A DNA stretch of 64,000 nt from a virus. Lineage: Duplodnaviria > Heunggongvirae > Uroviricota > Caudoviricetes. The position numbers were made by a program, and so were the translations under genes. Below the pieces are notes generated by a model, which worked only from the letters and a program-made list of their open reading frames with translations, searched no databases and was not told the DNA's origin. This document shows, one piece after another, positions 8,614-28,652 of this stretch (its first letter is position 1; every line of letters starts with the position of its first letter). Where the stretch lies: positions 36,007 to 100,006 of the IMG/VR virus record IMGVR_UViG_3300028832_000001, one strand, 5' to 3'.

Positions 8614-9222
8614 TTATTCTCCCAGATCTGATAATAAACGCATTGATGCAGTACCATTGAACATACCACCAGGAACTACGCCTGTTGCATAATCAACTGC
8701 TATTGCTGTAGCATTAATTGCATCTTTTAAATGTTTTTCAAATTCATCCCAGAAAATATTAAATATCTCTGGGTCAGCTGGATCTTCTGCTTGTATACGG
8801 GCTATAAATTTTTCACCATAAAGAATAAAGTGCCCAGTAACAAAACCAACCGATAAATTCGAAATAATACTTATCGGTGGTACAGAAACCCAAACTCTTA
8901 ATTTTTGGTTAATTGTTAAACCAATATAATTAAAGATGTTTGGAAATAATTGTTGCTCAGTTAAAGCATAAGATTGTAATATCATTGGTTGAAAGCTTAA
9001 AGTTTCCACTAATGGTTTAAGACATTCTGCAGCAAATGGAACAGTTGCACCATTTGGTGCTGTTACTGTACCTTTTACAGAACCTGTCTGAATTACCAAC
9101 CTTTCATTAAACCATTCATTAAGTGCTTCGGCTAATTTTACATAGTATAAACCGAAAGGCGTTGATGCTTCAATTTCTTTTAATTTAGGTTGAATGATAC
9201 TTCTAAAACTTCTAAATGCCAT
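8614..9222 (-). CDS. Hypothetical protein co-transcribed with TerL-C
   Basis: 202 aa; TAATG overlap with the terminase fragment; no recognised family. Confidence 0.7.
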   Translation of the reverse strand: MAFRSFRSIIQPKLKEIEASTPFGLYYVKLAEALNEWFNERLVIQTGSVKGTVTAPNGATVPFAAECLKPLVETLSFQPMILQSYALTEQQLFPNIFNYIGLTINQKLRVWVSVPPISIISNLSVGFVTGHFILYGEKFIARIQAEDPADPEIFNIFWDEFEKHLKDAINATAIAVDYATGVVPGGMFNGTASMRLLSDLGE

Positions 9223-10277
9223 TATTTAAAATCACTCCAGAAATCGTCATTATATTCCATTGCATCAGCCATCATGTCAATGGTCATATTATCTTCTTGT
9301 TTAATTTCTTCTTTGATTCTGATATTATCCATATCGATTTCTGGTTGTAATGTGGCATATACAGCCCAATATAAAGCTGAAACAGTATCATCATGATTTC
9401 CTTTTGCAGCTTTGAAAACGTTAGACTGTTGTTCTTCAAATCTTGAAAGTTCTGCAATAGTTACACCATCATGAATGGTAAGAATTTCAGCATCAACGAC
9501 TCTTTGTAATTCGAGGCATGCATCGAGCTTGGAACGTTTATCTGATTTAGTTCCTAAACCTTTACCTGCTTTTTCAGTATTTAAAAGATTTGGATTTTCA
9601 AGTGTATACCAAATTTCTTCTACAACCTGTTTACCTGGGTCATTGTTTTCAATAATGAAATAAGCATTGTTATACATCTTGGAAACATTGTCAATAATTC
9701 TGGCAAACTGACCAGGTTTTACAGTATTGGAACGATATGTTGCAACTTGTTCCATGTGATACTTGTCTTTAATTTCAATAACCTGAATACAAGCATAGTC
9801 ACCACCAACACCAGCACAAGGGTCACATCCCATTAAATAGAAATGTCCAGCTTCAGGCTTTTTATAAATCGATAATGACAAATCTTCATAGAGAACATCG
9901 ATTGGTTCCATTTCTACAAGTTTTTCAAGAACATTACCACTAATCAATGTATTAGAAGAACCAATGAATGAGCAGTTATGATGAATAACTCCATTCGTTG
10001 TTTCATACAATGCACCATCAATATTAAGAGGAGTATAAACTGTTTTAACTCCTACTTCTTCTATTTGAACAACTTGACTTATATCAAACGTGCTATTCTT
10101 TACTTGAGAACCACGTTTAAGATCTTTTGCATAAATGTCTTGATTATCAGGTGTTTTAAACCTATGGTCTAAAGAGCATGTAATTTCAGAATTATCAAAT
10201 ATAATATGAACAGACTCAGCTGATTTCTTCTGAAATCCATCGAATTTCTTGAATGTATCACCAATCTTAATAAACAT
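9222..10277 (-). CDS. gp17: Large terminase C-terminal (RNase H-like nuclease) half fused to a split-intein C-fragment
   Basis: aa 1-101 intein C-half ending HHN; extein starts CSFIGSSNTLI; nuclease motifs LMGCDPCAGVGGDY, IENN, HDDTVSAL; no ATPase domain. Confidence 0.9.
   Translation of the reverse strand: MFIKIGDTFKKFDGFQKKSAESVHIIFDNSEITCSLDHRFKTPDNQDIYAKDLKRGSQVKNSTFDISQVVQIEEVGVKTVYTPLNIDGALYETTNGVIHHNCSFIGSSNTLISGNVLEKLVEMEPIDVLYEDLSLSIYKKPEAGHFYLMGCDPCAGVGGDYACIQVIEIKDKYHMEQVATYRSNTVKPGQFARIIDNVSKMYNNAYFIIENNDPGKQVVEEIWYTLENPNLLNTEKAGKGLGTKSDKRSKLDACLELQRVVDAEILTIHDGVTIAELSRFEEQQSNVFKAAKGNHDDTVSALYWAVYATLQPEIDMDNIRIKEEIKQEDNMTIDMMADAMEYNDDFWSDFK
9975..10277 (-). mobile_element. Split intein C-fragment (IntC, atypically long, AceL-TerL type)
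   Basis: Block B CSLDH, block F VYTPLNI, block G VIHHN followed by Cys+1; starts at its own Met. Confidence 0.85.
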
Positions 10278-10310
10278 AAAAACTCACTGAAATAAACAGA
10301 ATATTTTATA

Positions 10311-10337
10311 TATTTATAACAACTAAAACTATAAATA
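10311..10337. promoter_or_regulatory. Divergent pair of T4-type late promoters
   Basis: TATAAATA on the minus strand at 10311-10318 (for TerL-C) and on the plus strand at 10330-10337. Confidence 0.8.
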
Positions 10338-10365
10338 TTATAAAACAATTAGAAGGGCTTAAAAT

Positions 10366-11712
10366 ATGTTAAATTTAGATGTAACTCCTGCTGAAATGAG
10401 TTCTGACGAAATCAAGTCATGGCTTAATGAATGTGCAGCTGAAATTGAAAAAGCATATGATGATGATAATATTACATATGCAAATAAGCTTGATATGATT
10501 TATCAAGCAGTAAAGCAAATGGGTGCTGAAAAACTCAAGAATGAATCCTTTAAGGGATATATGAAAGCTTCATTCTTATCAGAATCTGTTACTGAAGATG
10601 GTAATGATGCAACAAGCTTGATTGAAGTTGATGAATGTATCAATACAATTAAGAAGCAATTAAAAGATTGCGAAGTTGAACTTGATGCAAAGGTAACAGT
10701 TGATGAAAATTTAAAGGTTGTTGACTTTCAACCGATTACCGTTGATATTGGTTTTAAGCTTCCTTATATTGACGATTTGCAACACATTGTCTTAACATAT
10801 ACACCTTCTGAAATTCCTACTGATTTAGATATTGATTCTATTCCAGCCAAGGATTATAAGGCAACACCACAAGGCGAAAATACAGAAATTGCATTTAAGT
10901 CTATTACCAATTTGTCTGATAATCTTCCAGAATTAATGTTCAAGGAAACTATCGAATGGCCATTTGAAATGGATTTCAAGTCTGCTGCAGTAGAAAAGAA
11001 GTTTAATAAGAATAAGACTTTAACTGCTAAGATTGTTGCGTTACTTGGTAAGGAACAATTAATTAATAAGGTTAGTGGTTATCAGTCTACTCACTCTTCT
11101 GGTTCTAATAGAGCAACAAGAGCAAAGAGAGAAGCTGAAGTAATCAGGGCATCAGTTCGTGCTCGTGGACCATTCAAATCCAGAACTGAAATTCTTAAAG
11201 ATACACTTACTGCAATTCCAGGCATTACTTCTGTTAGAGAAATGGATGTCATGGGTGATCATAAGTATTATAAGAAGTTCAGAATTACCTTTAATGGCGG
11301 TTGGTTTGATGTTTTCAATGGCGGTATGGATTTCAGAGTTACTGATAGTACTGGTGGTTTCGGTAATAGTCAGGAATTCAGAACTGATACACATGATCCA
11401 GACGCATCTGTAAATAATACACGTAATAAAGTTGTAGCATATATCAAGCAGAGAATGGAAGCTATTAAACGTGGCGGTATGGGTGCTAGAGAACGTGCTG
11501 CTTTAGAGATGAGAAATAGACCGCAAAGACGCGATTTAACGACTGAATATAACGAGTTTGTTAAGATGGCTGAAGAAACCCTAGCTGGAACAAATGTCAC
11601 GTCCAGAGACGTCTTATCAGACAAATATGACCGTCTCATGTATAGTGAACGTTTCTTGTCTGATGAGCAGATGACTAAGATTACTGAACTTGCAACACAA
11701 CTTGATATTTAA
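10366..11712 (+). CDS. Putative internal head protein
   Basis: Late promoter; N-terminus has several gp21-type sites (WLNE, LKNE, FLSE, VTE) and the CTS-like FKGYMKASFLSE. Confidence 0.55.
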   Translation: MLNLDVTPAEMSSDEIKSWLNECAAEIEKAYDDDNITYANKLDMIYQAVKQMGAEKLKNESFKGYMKASFLSESVTEDGNDATSLIEVDECINTIKKQLKDCEVELDAKVTVDENLKVVDFQPITVDIGFKLPYIDDLQHIVLTYTPSEIPTDLDIDSIPAKDYKATPQGENTEIAFKSITNLSDNLPELMFKETIEWPFEMDFKSAAVEKKFNKNKTLTAKIVALLGKEQLINKVSGYQSTHSSGSNRATRAKREAEVIRASVRARGPFKSRTEILKDTLTAIPGITSVREMDVMGDHKYYKKFRITFNGGWFDVFNGGMDFRVTDSTGGFGNSQEFRTDTHDPDASVNNTRNKVVAYIKQRMEAIKRGGMGARERAALEMRNRPQRRDLTTEYNEFVKMAEETLAGTNVTSRDVLSDKYDRLMYSERFLSDEQMTKITELATQLDI

Positions 11713-13986: not shown

Positions 13987-14778
13987 TTACTTAATTTTTG
14001 GTAAGAAGAACGACGGAACGAATGGCATCGGAAGTAAAATATCTTCACCACAAGAATCGCACTTAAACTTTGCTACTGGCTTTGCACTGAAAAGCAATTC
14101 TGCCATTTCATTTGTAAAATGACTGAAGCTCTTTGCATCCATATCACAAATATATTCGTAAGCCTTATACAAAGACATCTTAGTATCATTTACCTTAAGA
14201 ATATAGCTAGAAAGTTCAAGAAGTTCAGGATTGATTTCAATCATGATGTTTTGGTCATTCTTTAAACGATTGATTGCACCTTCAGTAGCGATTGTCGGAT
14301 AAGTAATTGTAATCTTATCCTTATTTGGTAATTCAATATATTCTGGAACGTCTTTGTCAAGATATGTAACGTCAAGATTCTTGAGGAAGAACTTATAATT
14401 TCTGATATTACCACAATTATCACAAGTTCCACGAAGAAGGAACGGAATATCATCATAAGTGAAAGCACGGAGGTAATAAATTAACCAAATCTTATCACCT
14501 GTAAGAATCTTACCTGTTTCAATACCCCATAAACAATTAGAAAGAACATTATTAATAACATTATTAATATTATTTTCATTAATTGTTGCAAGATTCTTAA
14601 TATTTAAAGTATTTAATTTCTTTACATAGATTGTTTCTGGATAGAATTTACCTCTTGACGGTAATAAACTCTTATCCAACATTACTGCACCTTTAGGTGG
14701 TTGATTACTTAACTGATTAGAAACTTCTCCAACATTACTTTGAGTAATATTATTCAAATCTAACTTTTCTGATTTCAT
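13987..14778 (-). CDS. gp26: Baseplate hub assembly protein (gp26/gp51-like), paralogue 2
   Basis: LPSRGKFYP...ILTGDKIWLIYYLRAF...CDNC...CDSC...FFLP; TATAAATA at 14811-14818. Confidence 0.7.
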   Translation of the reverse strand: MKSEKLDLNNITQSNVGEVSNQLSNQPPKGAVMLDKSLLPSRGKFYPETIYVKKLNTLNIKNLATINENNINNVINNVLSNCLWGIETGKILTGDKIWLIYYLRAFTYDDIPFLLRGTCDNCGNIRNYKFFLKNLDVTYLDKDVPEYIELPNKDKITITYPTIATEGAINRLKNDQNIMIEINPELLELSSYILKVNDTKMSLYKAYEYICDMDAKSFSHFTNEMAELLFSAKPVAKFKCDSCGEDILLPMPFVPSFFLPKIK

Positions 14779-14849
14779 ATTTTCACCTTTAATATTTAAA
14801 CAATTTTATATATTTATAAATTTTAAATATCTATCTATACACACGTTCA

Positions 14850-15155
14850 AAATATCTGTAGAGACAATAAGCCTATTTAAGGAAATAGGCAAAAGACTAA
14901 TACATCTGTCTTCGACTAGTGGATTTACAAACGAGCTTACGGGTCGGTCATCCTGTACTCCGGCTATATCTCGTCCTACCAATGGCGGCTAAATATACTG
15001 CTTGCTAGACAGTATTTCGATGAACATTCCATTATCCGTTAATACCGGATCATATAAATGAAAGACACAGTTCTAGTATCTTTAATGGCTAACCCTCTAC
15101 CGACAGTTCCATTGGATTGGTCTTCGCTCCGAGGAATTAGACTTTGGAATTTATG
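14850..15155 (-). ncRNA. Candidate structured non-coding RNA of unknown class
   Basis: ORF-free ~440-bp gap, GC-richer than other spacers; CTATATTTG promoter at 15160-15168; at least six stems including G-U pairs, plus a possible pseudoknot. Confidence 0.55.
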
Positions 15156-15217
15156 GAATCAAATATAGATTGATTGTAAAATTTTGTAAACTAAAGAATA
15201 CCAAAAAGTCTGATTTT

Positions 15218-17272
15218 TTAGCTTAGATAACCATATTCCCTAATAACACGTTTAAAGCTTGCTTTAGTTTTATCTTTAACTTTTAACTTATCAACACTTC
15301 TGGATAATTCATCCAATGTAGCCTGACTAAATGTTCCACGTTTAATATCTTCATTAAGCATCTGAACATTACTTTCATCCTTATTGAACTGGTTCCAAAC
15401 AGTCTTAAATCCACTATAAGCATGTTCCATATGTAACATACCCTGAACTGTCTTATTAGCAGTGCCTTTATTGCTATCAATAACTGTTTGTCTAGTGCTT
15501 TCAGACCAACCCTCGGTATCTACTAACATATTCTTATCGCTAACTCTCTGAGAAGCATCTTCATCAAGCTGAATATTTAGATAAATACCCTTACCCTTAT
15601 CAAGCTTAACTACAGATGTATTACCATAGTCATCTGTAATAACACCACCTGTTGTTTCAAGTAATTGATTAAGACCTTCTTTAGCACCTTTCAAGTTTGC
15701 TTTCTTACGTTCTTCTTTAGTAGTATAACCTATACCACCACCATTTGCTAAAAATACGTCAACAATTGCTTCTTTACCACCAAATGCTTCTTGAACAGCC
15801 TTGTTAAGTGAAGCAGAATCTTTGAACTGCATTGTAACACCATTGATGTTAACAGTAATTTCACCAAGGTCACTATAACCTCTAGCACCTTCAGAAGAAC
15901 CAGAACCTAAGTTAATTGTACCTCTTGCACCACCAGTATCAAGCATATCAAAGAATACGTGTCCACGTTCACCTTCCCTAGCAGTAACTTCTTTTTCATA
16001 AGAATAAACAATAGCACCTATTAATGGGTCATTACCATTATAACTACTACGTATAGGTGTGGTTTCTTTCTTAGGAGTATCAACTTCCATACCAACAGCT
16101 TCTTTAATTGCTCTATTCAAATCATCTTCAGTTGCATAATCTTTCTGTAATTCTTTAGCAAGAGAATCAGCATCAGTTACTGGTTTATTCAATTCATCAA
16201 TTCTAGCAACATTTTCATTCATCTTATATAAAATATCACTAATTTCTGCAACTGTTTCTTCATCAGCATTAGTAAATTTTAAGAATCTTGCTACAGCTTC
16301 AGTTTCATAAATATCTGCACCATTTGCAGCATTAAATCCGACTAATTCATAATCACCACCAGCAACAGATTCTTTTGTATTCTCACCATGTTCAGCACGA
16401 ATATTAGCATTCAAGAAATTCAATAGAGTTTCAGTTTGATTTGCCATTGTGCTGCCACCTTTACTTTCAGCAATTTGTTGCATAAGTGCTAGTTGTTCAG
16501 GAGAAGCATTTTCCATACTTTTTGCATAAGCAACAGCAAGGCGTTCCATCATATATTGATTTAAATCTAAGTTTTCATTAGCCAATTCATCAATTCTCTT
16601 ATCAGCCAATTTACGTTCAGCTTTCAATATCTTATCAGCATACTCAGTATTTTTATGATTTTTGAGAGTTTCTTTAAGAGCATCATTAAGCGCTTTATTA
16701 TCTGGCAATGTATATTCTGTAGTATATCTGCTTATTTCATCATTATCACCATAATGTTCTAATGTTAATGGTTCGTCCATTACATAAACAACATTAAATG
16801 TAGCAGTAATTTCGATTGGACTACCAAATCCGTTATTATTGAAAGATGGCATTCCATGTTCTTTTAAACGACATACATAAACTTTTCTATCAGCAACGTC
16901 TACCATTGATTCATTAAATTGTGTAACGCGTATATTGATAAGAGGAGGTAAATATCCTTTATAGAGATTCGGTCCCATCCATGTACATAATTGTTTAAAG
17001 ACTTCCATCTTGTCTGTTTCTTCAAAAGTAATTTCTAATGAAGTTTCACCATACTTAAAGATAGGAACGACATATGCAGTATTACCGAAAACCTTTTTAT
17101 TTTCGGTATCTAATTTATATACTGGTTGAGTAATCTTCTTAATAGTATACTTGAATTTAGTATACTCTTCAATTCTATCACCTTCAGCAGCATTAGGCCA
17201 GATTTCAGCACTGAATCTGTAATTGATATGTGGTCTAAGCCTTTGTATATTAAAAATATTTACAAGTCCCAT
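15218..17272 (-). CDS. Tail-tube-fold (gp19/gp54-like) domain fused to a ~500-aa extension
   Basis: N-terminal RPHINYRFSAEI...KKITQP...LEITFEET...EITATFNV is tube-like; coupled downstream of gp14. Confidence 0.55.
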   Translation of the reverse strand: MGLVNIFNIQRLRPHINYRFSAEIWPNAAEGDRIEEYTKFKYTIKKITQPVYKLDTENKKVFGNTAYVVPIFKYGETSLEITFEETDKMEVFKQLCTWMGPNLYKGYLPPLINIRVTQFNESMVDVADRKVYVCRLKEHGMPSFNNNGFGSPIEITATFNVVYVMDEPLTLEHYGDNDEISRYTTEYTLPDNKALNDALKETLKNHKNTEYADKILKAERKLADKRIDELANENLDLNQYMMERLAVAYAKSMENASPEQLALMQQIAESKGGSTMANQTETLLNFLNANIRAEHGENTKESVAGGDYELVGFNAANGADIYETEAVARFLKFTNADEETVAEISDILYKMNENVARIDELNKPVTDADSLAKELQKDYATEDDLNRAIKEAVGMEVDTPKKETTPIRSSYNGNDPLIGAIVYSYEKEVTAREGERGHVFFDMLDTGGARGTINLGSGSSEGARGYSDLGEITVNINGVTMQFKDSASLNKAVQEAFGGKEAIVDVFLANGGGIGYTTKEERKKANLKGAKEGLNQLLETTGGVITDDYGNTSVVKLDKGKGIYLNIQLDEDASQRVSDKNMLVDTEGWSESTRQTVIDSNKGTANKTVQGMLHMEHAYSGFKTVWNQFNKDESNVQMLNEDIKRGTFSQATLDELSRSVDKLKVKDKTKASFKRVIREYGYLS

Positions 17273-18173: not shown

Positions 18174-18758
18174 ATGGATAAAAAATACGGAAAAATCTTT
18201 AAAACTGTTCCAAAACAATCTTTTAGCGATTATTTTTCTACTAAAAAAAGAGAAATAAATGACGAAGAAAGATATAATGAAGCAGTTAGAATTATGCATG
18301 AACATCGATATGCTATTTTAAACGAAGGTAAAATGGCACAATGGATTGCTGGTGTTGCATTGTCATTAGGACTTATTACTAATGCCATGGCAAGAGATTT
18401 TAATGCTCAAGCTTCATCTGGATATACAAGTCAGAAAGCATCTACTTCTATATTTAATAAAAATTTACAGAAGAATTTTAATATGGAATCTGACGTTCAG
18501 TTGACTGACACGATGGTTCAAAATATTGTTGATAATGTCGCTAAGAAGATTGCAAATAGAATGGTTAAAGAAAATAAATATGAAGAAGATGAATTACTTG
18601 AACTTCCAGAATGGAAAGATGCAGTTGAATTCTATAAGCAACTTGTAAAGGCTGATGAAAGTTTAGGTAATATGTTTTCTCGTCGTTTAGATAAAGCACT
18701 AACACAAAGTATTAGAATTGCTCCTAACATACAACGATATGTTTTAAAGAATGGTTAA
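18174..18758 (+). CDS. Putative packaged protein with a cryptic signal-peptide-like segment
   Basis: SFSDYF...EAVRIMHEHRYAILNE|GKMAQWIAGVALSLGLITNAMA|RDF. Confidence 0.6.
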   Translation: MDKKYGKIFKTVPKQSFSDYFSTKKREINDEERYNEAVRIMHEHRYAILNEGKMAQWIAGVALSLGLITNAMARDFNAQASSGYTSQKASTSIFNKNLQKNFNMESDVQLTDTMVQNIVDNVAKKIANRMVKENKYEEDELLELPEWKDAVEFYKQLVKADESLGNMFSRRLDKALTQSIRIAPNIQRYVLKNG

Positions 18759-18761
18759 ATT

Positions 18762-18787
18762 AAAAAGGTTACTCAAACGAGTAACCT
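18762..18787. terminator. Bidirectional terminator
   Basis: AAGGTTACTC/GAGTAACCTT stem between convergent genes. Confidence 0.8.
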
Positions 18788-18794
18788 TAAATTT

Positions 18795-19271
18795 TTAATT
18801 CTTACCAAGTAATGTAATTAAATCATCTTTTGTTTGTCTTGGTGTTTCATATTTAACAAATTGACCACCACCATTTGCAAATGCTTCACAATTTTTTCTG
18901 AAGTCATCAATCAATACTGAATTTTGGTCAGCATAATATTCTTTTTCTTTACCAAGATTCGTAATAATAATGTGATGTTTATCAATTTTGGTATTATTCT
19001 TTAACCAATTTAGTTTACCAATCTTACCGTCTGTGAAATTTACAGAAGTTAAGATAAATAAATCTATATTTTCTTGTTCACAGAGTTTTAAAATCCATTC
19101 GTAAAGTTCTTTACCTTCAGGAAGCCACTCCATTTCTTCCCAGAATTCTGGACCTCCCTGGTGAACTATTTCCCAGTTGACCTTGTTACCGTTAATACAT
19201 TCATACTTTTCGCATTGTCCGCGAAAATTAACAATAACACCGTCCATGTCAAGAAAAATTTTATCAATCAT
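18795..19271 (-). CDS. HAD-superfamily 5'(3')-deoxyribonucleotidase-like protein
   Basis: IFLDMDGVIVNF, ILTS, GKLNWL, VLIDDF. Confidence 0.85.
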   Translation of the reverse strand: MIDKIFLDMDGVIVNFRGQCEKYECINGNKVNWEIVHQGGPEFWEEMEWLPEGKELYEWILKLCEQENIDLFILTSVNFTDGKIGKLNWLKNNTKIDKHHIIITNLGKEKEYYADQNSVLIDDFRKNCEAFANGGGQFVKYETPRQTKDDLITLLGKN

Positions 19272-28330: not shown

Positions 28331-28338
28331 AGGTAAAA

Positions 28339-28641
28339 TTGTTGTTTTCTGTATATTACAAGATAGAACATAGGGAAGAATTTCTTAAAAAACACTTTGA
28401 TAAAGTTTTCAAAACTTATACTGAAGAAGAAAAAGAAATTTCTATTGATCGTCTTACAGATTTAATGGAATTAATGGTAAATATGCTGTTAACAGGTGAT
28501 AAATGTGGACTTTATGACCTTTTAACAAAGAAAAATACAAAATCTGCAAGAGTTTTCTTCAATTATTTGACTTGTTCAAATATTCGTAGTATAAATAAAG
28601 AAATGATTAAAGACAGAATTAACGAAGTCTTTAAGATTTAA
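28339..28641 (+). CDS. Hypothetical protein (TTG start)
   Basis: 100 aa; AGAGGT SD. Confidence 0.6.
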   Translation: MLFSVYYKIEHREEFLKKHFDKVFKTYTEEEKEISIDRLTDLMELMVNMLLTGDKCGLYDLLTKKNTKSARVFFNYLTCSNIRSINKEMIKDRINEVFKI

Positions 28642-28652
28642 GGAACGCGATT

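Follow-up and report, generated by a model that had tools for sequence, protein, structure and literature searches.

The described RNA closest to the one analyzed here is the cow-rumen-2 motif (Rfam RF02947), which is listed as an sRNA gene of 106 nt and which reportedly comes from Weinberg et al. in 2017. The family is among those refined with R-scape (PMC11701678), and the main text of that 2017 paper (PMC5737381) does not name it. In the literature searched, which lay outside the supplement of the original motif paper, no description of a full-length form was found. Among larger RNAs, ROOL and GOLLD are carried by phages, and OLE RNA assembles into a ribonucleoprotein (PMC12286853). Large bacterial and phage RNAs with multiple pseudoknots are rare, and those of known function are mostly catalysts or core ribonucleoproteins (PMC10861870).

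The RNA described here gave a full-length match to cow-rumen-2, with helices P8 to P11 agreeing and covarying. It differs from RF02947 in being about three times longer, with additional 5' and 3' domains; in two pseudoknots, PK1 and the putative PK2, which Rfam does not include and which would take the place of its 2-bp GG/CC hairpin; and in being phage-encoded, with its own promoter and with three or four copies in large genomes. In character, as a stand-alone and pseudoknotted RNA, it is most like raiA and ROOL. The raiA motif (RF03072) is also stand-alone and trans-acting; it has a swappable periphery and two covarying pseudoknots, and over 50 of its positions are highly conserved (PMC10861870). 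Whereas raiA is a single-copy chromosomal RNA of Bacillota and Actinomycetota, the present RNA is multi-copy and was found only in phages; raiA was rejected as its identity on this ground and because its model gave no match at E 10. ROOL and GOLLD resemble it in being phage-borne and elaborately folded (ROOL with several pseudoknots), and GOLLD also combines a conserved with a variable region (PMC12286853). Both were rejected, since neither model matched, the RNA has 300-400 nt versus about 600-800 nt and falls below about 580 nt, and it lies neither in nor near tRNA islands.

The locus and its genome

The window (the whole 64-kb stretch of DNA that was analyzed) comes from a complete phage record of 415,750 bp (G000), in which four copies of the RNA were located, at 51, 113, 273 and 359 kb. 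The phage is T4-like, with a terminase, a head-closure protein, a RegA-like repressor and a gp26-like hub, and carries 47 tRNAs. Its terminase large subunit is apparently split: the gene in the window (9222-10277, minus strand) starts with about 100 aa ending in HHN-C, followed by the nuclease half, and the ATPase half, encoded on the opposite strand at a distance of about 59 kb (G000 104931-105851, plus strand), ends in a tail of about 35 aa starting at Cys. As read from the sequence, this terminase appears to be split naturally by a split intein. Between tRNA clusters lies another stand-alone ORF that resembles the terminase ATPase (PF03237; G000 300756-301532, minus strand) and lacks an intein tail. 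Two tRNA-like elements of 111-117 nt within a tRNA cluster (L342:2158-2394, corresponding to G000 ~310757-310993, minus strand) match YrlA (Y RNA-like) weakly, at 35.9 bits against a cut-off of 69, in a genome without Ro60. Additionally, a CCA-adding-type nucleotidyltransferase and a T4 Rnl1-like RNA ligase adjoin each other at G000 269033-271460 (minus strand), 1.3-4 kb downstream of one RNA paralogue.

The largest gap in the window without ATG-initiated ORFs of at least 60 aa spans positions 14779-15217 (439 nt), and its GC content is 0.33 versus 0.12-0.26 in the next seven gaps, as an earlier note made from the sequence alone had observed; within the RNA proper the GC content is about 0.41. 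The second-largest ORF-free gap (28331-28652, 322 nt) has a GC content of 0.26. Elsewhere in G000, seven further GC-rich gaps without long ORFs (779-1670, 10195-10677, 18444-19269, 230564-231184, 378889-379772, 381705-382277 and 406354-407512), one of them with a GC content of 0.63, gave no Rfam match and may hold further RNAs or short genes.

The only match returned by cmscan in the window was RF02947, at 14916-15021 on the minus strand (107.7 bits, cut-off 66, full model 1-106). Because the core is cow-rumen-2, the earlier note was mistaken in assigning the RNA to an unknown class. The Rfam consensus helices are 95% paired among the homologues, with double changes at 21 of 24 pairs, and by score and helices the RNA is classified here as an RF02947 member. 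tRNA and tmRNA were rejected, as ARAGORN found none in the window and a 58-aa frame overlapping the RNA is unconserved among homologues. The 684-aa product of the upstream gene had no family match in Pfam or PHROG. The features of the locus are as follows.

13987..14778, minus strand: downstream neighbour, T4 gp26-like baseplate hub protein (PF12322, E 7.5e-9)
14811..14818, minus strand: T4-type late promoter TATAAATA of the downstream gene, kept in orthologues without the RNA
14854..14909, minus strand: twin segments R1 (14904-09) and R2 (14854-59), one after each P12 strand
14862..14917, minus strand: 3' domain, closed by P12 (14917-12 with 14862-67) and holding hairpin 14871-90
14862..15152, minus strand: full RNA, about 290 nt, or up to about 315 nt with a tail to ~14838; probable ends, from paralogue and orthologue homology
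14916..15021, minus strand: RF02947 cow-rumen-2 core, with P8 (14995-15015) and the arm P9-P10-P11 (14921-14980)
14944..14957, minus strand: invariant 14-nt loop, with the 3' strands of PK2 and PK1 and a free AGG
14982..14990, minus strand: near-invariant strand, with the putative PK2 5' strand (14982-86) and a candidate partner (14987-90) of GGCU 14870-73
15018..15020, minus strand: PK1 5' strand, pairing with 14944-14946, absent from the Rfam structure
15030..15087, minus strand: three-way junction of P4 (15087-84 with 15030-33), P5 (15061-83) and P6 (15034-50)
15088..15142, minus strand: type A 5' domain, with helix P2 (15140-31 with 15089-97)
15160..15190, minus strand: host-type promoter, TTTACA at 15185-90, 17 nt, TATATTTG at 15160-67; probable start ~15152-15155
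15218..17272, minus strand: upstream neighbour, 684 aa, with weak tail-tube-like leads

Homologues and their distribution

Pattern scans yielded 81 distinct core sequences, 49 of which are non-redundant at 95%, and synteny-based searches added further members; a looser pattern scan returned noise alone when scored with our own covariance model. Loci L116 and L136, whose 5' and 3' halves are of different paralogue types with the junction in the conserved core, look like recombinants or assembly chimeras and were excluded from the alignments. The copy at L008:3760-3883 carries several substitutions at otherwise invariant positions and is possibly decaying.

Every match examined was phage DNA. 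The nine GTDB matches (L141-L149), in bins labelled Methanobrevibacter, Bacilli, Coprovivens and Succinivibrionaceae, are on contigs of up to 191 kb, seven of which are 93-97% identical to G000 over kilobases, and all nine carry 8-14 homologues of G000 genes. Cellular copies were rejected because all nine are mis-binned phage contigs. A search of cultured phages for the RNA gave no match. Among related near-complete genomes of 411-424 kb, one has four copies (G001) and another three (G013), and a near-complete genome of 248 kb has one. The paralogues within G000 are 66-77% identical in the core and 42-64% identical in the 5' domain.

Extent and domain organization

Judged from 45-49 non-redundant homologues, the RNA measures about 290-315 nt and is three times as long as the Rfam model, and its 5' and 3' domains covary; homology extends beyond the model by about 130 nt on the 5' side and by 55-85 nt on the 3' side. 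Covariation among homologues, which the earlier note had proposed as a check, was thus found, and the gap very probably holds a real noncoding RNA gene of about 290-315 nt with cow-rumen-2 as its core.

Three types of 5' domain were distinguished, namely A (the window copy, with a shortened form A'), B and C, and an AYYCAA hairpin loop is common to types A and C. In type A, helix P2 is 91% paired with double changes at six of ten pairs, and the domain has an invariant internal loop (GGARCGAA / URUCGG) and a capping hairpin with the AYYCAA loop. In the three-way junction, P4 is 98% paired with all four pairs double-changed, and double changes were counted at 8/8 pairs of P5 and 3/5 pairs of P6.

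The 3' domains sort into about ten clades around a near-invariant CCU loop (14880-82) and a near-invariant AGGCU (14870-74). P12 shows indel covariation, with an A on both strands or on neither in 39 concordant cases (21+17+1) and one discordant case. In L331, L332, L334 and L032, a minimal 3' domain is followed by a GC-rich multi-hairpin element of about 100 nt before a late promoter.

The twin segments R1 and R2 are weak in the window copy and strong in long 3' variants. They are alike within one RNA and unlike between RNAs, even between the paralogues of one genome, and their own score exceeds nearly all cross-clade scores in six of nine clades. Mutual pairing of R1 and R2 was rejected (mean rank 0.48, no better than cross-RNA controls), as was a switch in which both share one partner (rank 0.39); no partner common to both was consistently found elsewhere in the RNA. 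A helix closing the 5' and 3' ends is plausible by eye and was unsupported (own-versus-other duplex rank 0.44); its ACAU word was also found after a protein-gene promoter.

Secondary structure and pseudoknots

The folding energy of the single sequence lies within the range of its shuffles (z = -0.59), so the case for the RNA is comparative and not thermodynamic. An unbiased covariation scan was performed over 32,157 column pairs in 45 sequences, with compensatory events counted on a tree, and its top pairs fall almost exclusively in P2, the 5' hairpin, P8-P11 and one pseudoknot. The three pairs of PK1 are formed in 45/45, 45/45 and 43/45 sequences, with four and three pair types at the variable pairs, and in the divergent copy L271, which was outside the scan, both variable pairs changed concordantly; such covariation shows PK1 to be a real pseudoknot.

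The second pseudoknot, PK2, would pair 14986-82 with 14947-51; it contains one C-A mismatch, is nearly invariant and is likewise not in Rfam. One lineage repairs the C-A to U-A, and L271 loses both mismatch bases; these two independent natural-variant events are suggestive, though not proof, of a second pseudoknot stacked on the first. The mismatch-repairing lineage also lengthens AGCC/GGCU on both sides with a C-G pair, a single event. The 2-bp GG/CC hairpin of Rfam is nearly invariant, and both of its C's would also be needed for PK1 and PK2.

The revised model is 93% paired versus 35-39% for slid controls and 79% for the set of pairings in the earlier note, with double changes at 44 of its 58 pairs; these counts take in related sequences and are not probabilities. 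The supported helices contain 50 G-U versus 5 A-C, which points to a minus-strand RNA rather than to DNA. At least 95% conservation was found at 78 positions, many of them unpaired. Only 21 of the 66 model pairs occur in the minimum-energy fold, and therefore tertiary contacts or a partner are probably needed.

The overall reading of the earlier note, a phage noncoding RNA of about 300 nt with a pseudoknot and its own host-type promoter, is borne out by covariation, strand asymmetry and promoter conservation. The nine pairings that it listed are all complementary in the sequence, and they fared differently among the homologues. The stems at 15061-83, 15034-50, 14995-15015 and 14931-74 have covariation support, and hairpin 14871-90 has it in part (64% paired, in a poorly aligned region). 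Hairpin 14893-912, also in a poorly aligned region, is poorly kept (58% paired), stem 15109-13/15084-88 is 79% paired with no double changes, and stem 15145-50/15026-31 is 49% paired; the latter two stems were rejected. For the proposed pseudoknot between 15099-104 and 14943-48, the 3' strand was correctly placed but its 5' partner was not: the pairing breaks when the 3' strand varies (17/31 and 24/31 paired at two key pairs), and the 5' strand is missing from type B and C members.

Promoters and genomic context

The TTTACA (15190-85) located 17 nt before TATATT, as given in the earlier note, is present, and sites of this type alone are within chance expectation (13 found, 14.5 expected). Among the homologues of type A/A', 31 of 36 have a TTTAC-N17/18-TATATTTG-type promoter with TAnnTTT(G/A)-type elements that lie 19-28 nt ahead of the first helix. 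TAnnTTTG is a Bacteroidota-type -7 element. A late-type TATA element is found instead in six of eight type B and all three type C members, and the promoter class of the window RNA also precedes other G000 genes. The window RNA may be expressed early, as the earlier note proposed. Shine-Dalgarno sites were found for 204 of 447 G000 genes versus 21 in a control window, and Bacteroidetes generally lack Shine-Dalgarno use (PMC6847099); a Fibrobacter-like host is our guess.

Across the homologue loci, no conserved neighbouring gene was found; more than ten families are represented among the downstream genes, several of which are convergent. Orthologues of the gp26-like gene with 52-57% identity keep TATAAATA and have no RNA upstream. 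The cumulative GC skew of G000 has its minimum at 344,513 and its maximum at 161,836, and the minimum lies 15 kb from the nearest RNA copy and far from the window copy. The conserved promoter, the more than ten downstream families, some of them convergent, and the lack of a tie to the skew minimum make a stand-alone, trans-acting RNA most likely. A 752-nt gap at G000 342685-343436, about 1 kb from the skew minimum, has a promoter-like site and no Rfam match, and is a candidate replication origin.

Proposed function and alternative explanations

We propose that host RNA polymerase transcribes the window copy from its own promoter, which is conserved, perhaps early. The invariant loop 14944-57 would then pair with two distant strands, which would stack PK1 on PK2, and the CCU and AGGCU of the 3' domain probably dock on the remaining free core bases, as one variant supports. 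Around this knot, the 5' and 3' domains are exchangeable modules, as the three 5' types and about ten 3' clades show. The folded particle would act in trans, serving during takeover as a decoy or scaffold that binds a conserved macromolecule of host or phage, most plausibly one of the machinery for translation, RNA processing or defence. With promoters of host or late type, the three or four paralogues would serve different times or partners. An invariant knot with a swappable periphery implies that every copy keeps one site for one partner or reaction. Binding is preferred narrowly, because no cleavage-like edge, intron behaviour or ribozyme model match was found and because the short helices probably need support. 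A stand-alone phage noncoding RNA of about 300 nt that binds in trans is our best explanation as a whole, held tentatively, and the decoy or scaffold step on its own is put forward slightly more tentatively still. Neither a reverse transcriptase (PF00078) nor Ro60 was found in the complete G000 genome, and both were rejected as partners of the RNA for this reason.

An invariant multi-pseudoknot core with a C-A mismatch suits a catalytic site equally well. The stacked pseudoknots could thus be the active site of an undescribed ribozyme class, self-processing or working in trans on tRNAs, with the 3' CCU/AGGCU hairpin docking as substrate or guide; we regard this, including the docking, as unlikely but with an appreciable chance. 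The invariant knot within a variable periphery agrees with it, as does the base rate, since large bacterial noncoding RNAs of established function are mostly ribozymes (PMC10861870), and besides its 47 tRNAs the phage encodes a CCA-adding-type enzyme and an RNA ligase, both 1.3-4 kb from one paralogue. However, the RNA matches neither RNase P, glmS nor any ribozyme model even at E 10, conservation lies on both sides of the core with no cleavage-site-like edge, the RNA never interrupts an ORF, its copies are outside tRNA clusters, and a test of two alternative folds of the 3' domain was not significant. The more specific idea that cow-rumen-2 is the catalytic centre of such a phage class in rumen jumbo phages, with three or four stacked pseudoknot helices, a docked 3' CCU/AGGCU hairpin and paralogues with swapped periphery under host-type and late promoters, is somewhat less likely again. 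An RNA-only oligomer or cage, like ROOL, GOLLD or the OLE dimer, with contacts through the twin segments or the AYYCAA loop, is quite improbable: phage-borne ornate RNAs do form such assemblies (PMC12286853) and the twin segments are similar within each RNA, but the RNA is half the size of ROOL, R1:R2 pairing does not exceed the cross-RNA controls (mean rank 0.48), and raiA, pseudoknotted and about 200 nt long, is a monomer.

The promoter, the structured RNA and the AT-rich downstream tract would also fit a transcript priming an origin, like the T4 R-loop origins or ColE1 RNA II. The promoter is of host type, the 3' flank is AT-rich and each genome has several copies, and T4 itself uses several R-loop-type origins. 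Against this, the AT tract is explained by the late promoter, the copies at 51, 113, 273 and 359 kb do not coincide with the skew minimum (344,513) or maximum (161,836), no copy was located in the large gap by the minimum (342.7-343.4 kb), and the promoters of most type B and C copies are of late type. The earlier note had named GC-skew evidence of an origin as a possible counter-finding; no copy is tied to the skew minimum and the window copy is far from it, which weighs modestly against an origin, as skew also follows the coding strand and T4-like phages have several origins. We consider the origin about as improbable as the oligomer. A selfish mobile RNA element or its remnant, to which the several copies and their presence or absence at orthologous loci could point, is less likely than these: the genome has no reverse transcriptase, the paralogues are old (66-77% core identity) and at fixed loci within clades, and no ORF is interrupted. 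Lowest of all stands a cis-regulatory leader or riboswitch of the downstream gene with 14871-90 as its terminator. A terminator-like match does occur at 14890-71, and the RNA is on the strand of the gp26-like gene in 12 of 12 close loci; but downstream genes are unrelated and partly convergent, the U-tract is unconserved and P12 spans the hairpin, and the gene's own TATAAATA and its persistence without the RNA in orthologues at 52-57% identity rule against a leader.

Several known RNA classes were also compared directly. The glmS ribozyme (RF00234) and the nested double-pseudoknot ribozymes share a core of short stacked pseudoknot helices, and a few short words of the RNA presumably resemble glmS, a lead only; the strand order of the glmS pseudoknot is presumably reversed relative to the window RNA. 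No glmS gene lies downstream, and conserved domains lie 5' of the would-be cleavage site; glmS was rejected for lack of a match at E 10 and because the RNA is not in glmS leader position. Bacterial RNase P RNA (RF00010) is similar in size, in its conserved core and variable periphery and in short AAGUC and GGCU words, but the bulged base varies here (U, A or C) and pairs locally, and a closing P1 helix is unsupported. It was rejected, as no match was found in the genome at E 10 and CR-I to CR-V with the P4 pseudoknot do not fit. A group I intron was rejected because its S-like word pairs in P11 by covariation, the RNA is always intergenic and there is no Rfam match, and a retron, DRT or DGR noncoding RNA was rejected because PF00078 is absent from the complete genome.

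Implications for the cow-rumen-2 family

What is new here, as judged from comparative analysis, is that a catalogued orphan motif has a larger form with a different fold. The analysis extends an orphan Rfam fragment of 106 nt to a defined gene of about 300 nt whose ends are placed approximately, corrects its fold and supplies natural variants, so that probing, cryo-EM and catalysis assays can be applied to it directly; both peripheral domains would be missing from a construct trimmed at the Rfam limits. Retention of three or four diverged paralogues by several phages of 410-424 kb suggests that the RNA has a function under selection.
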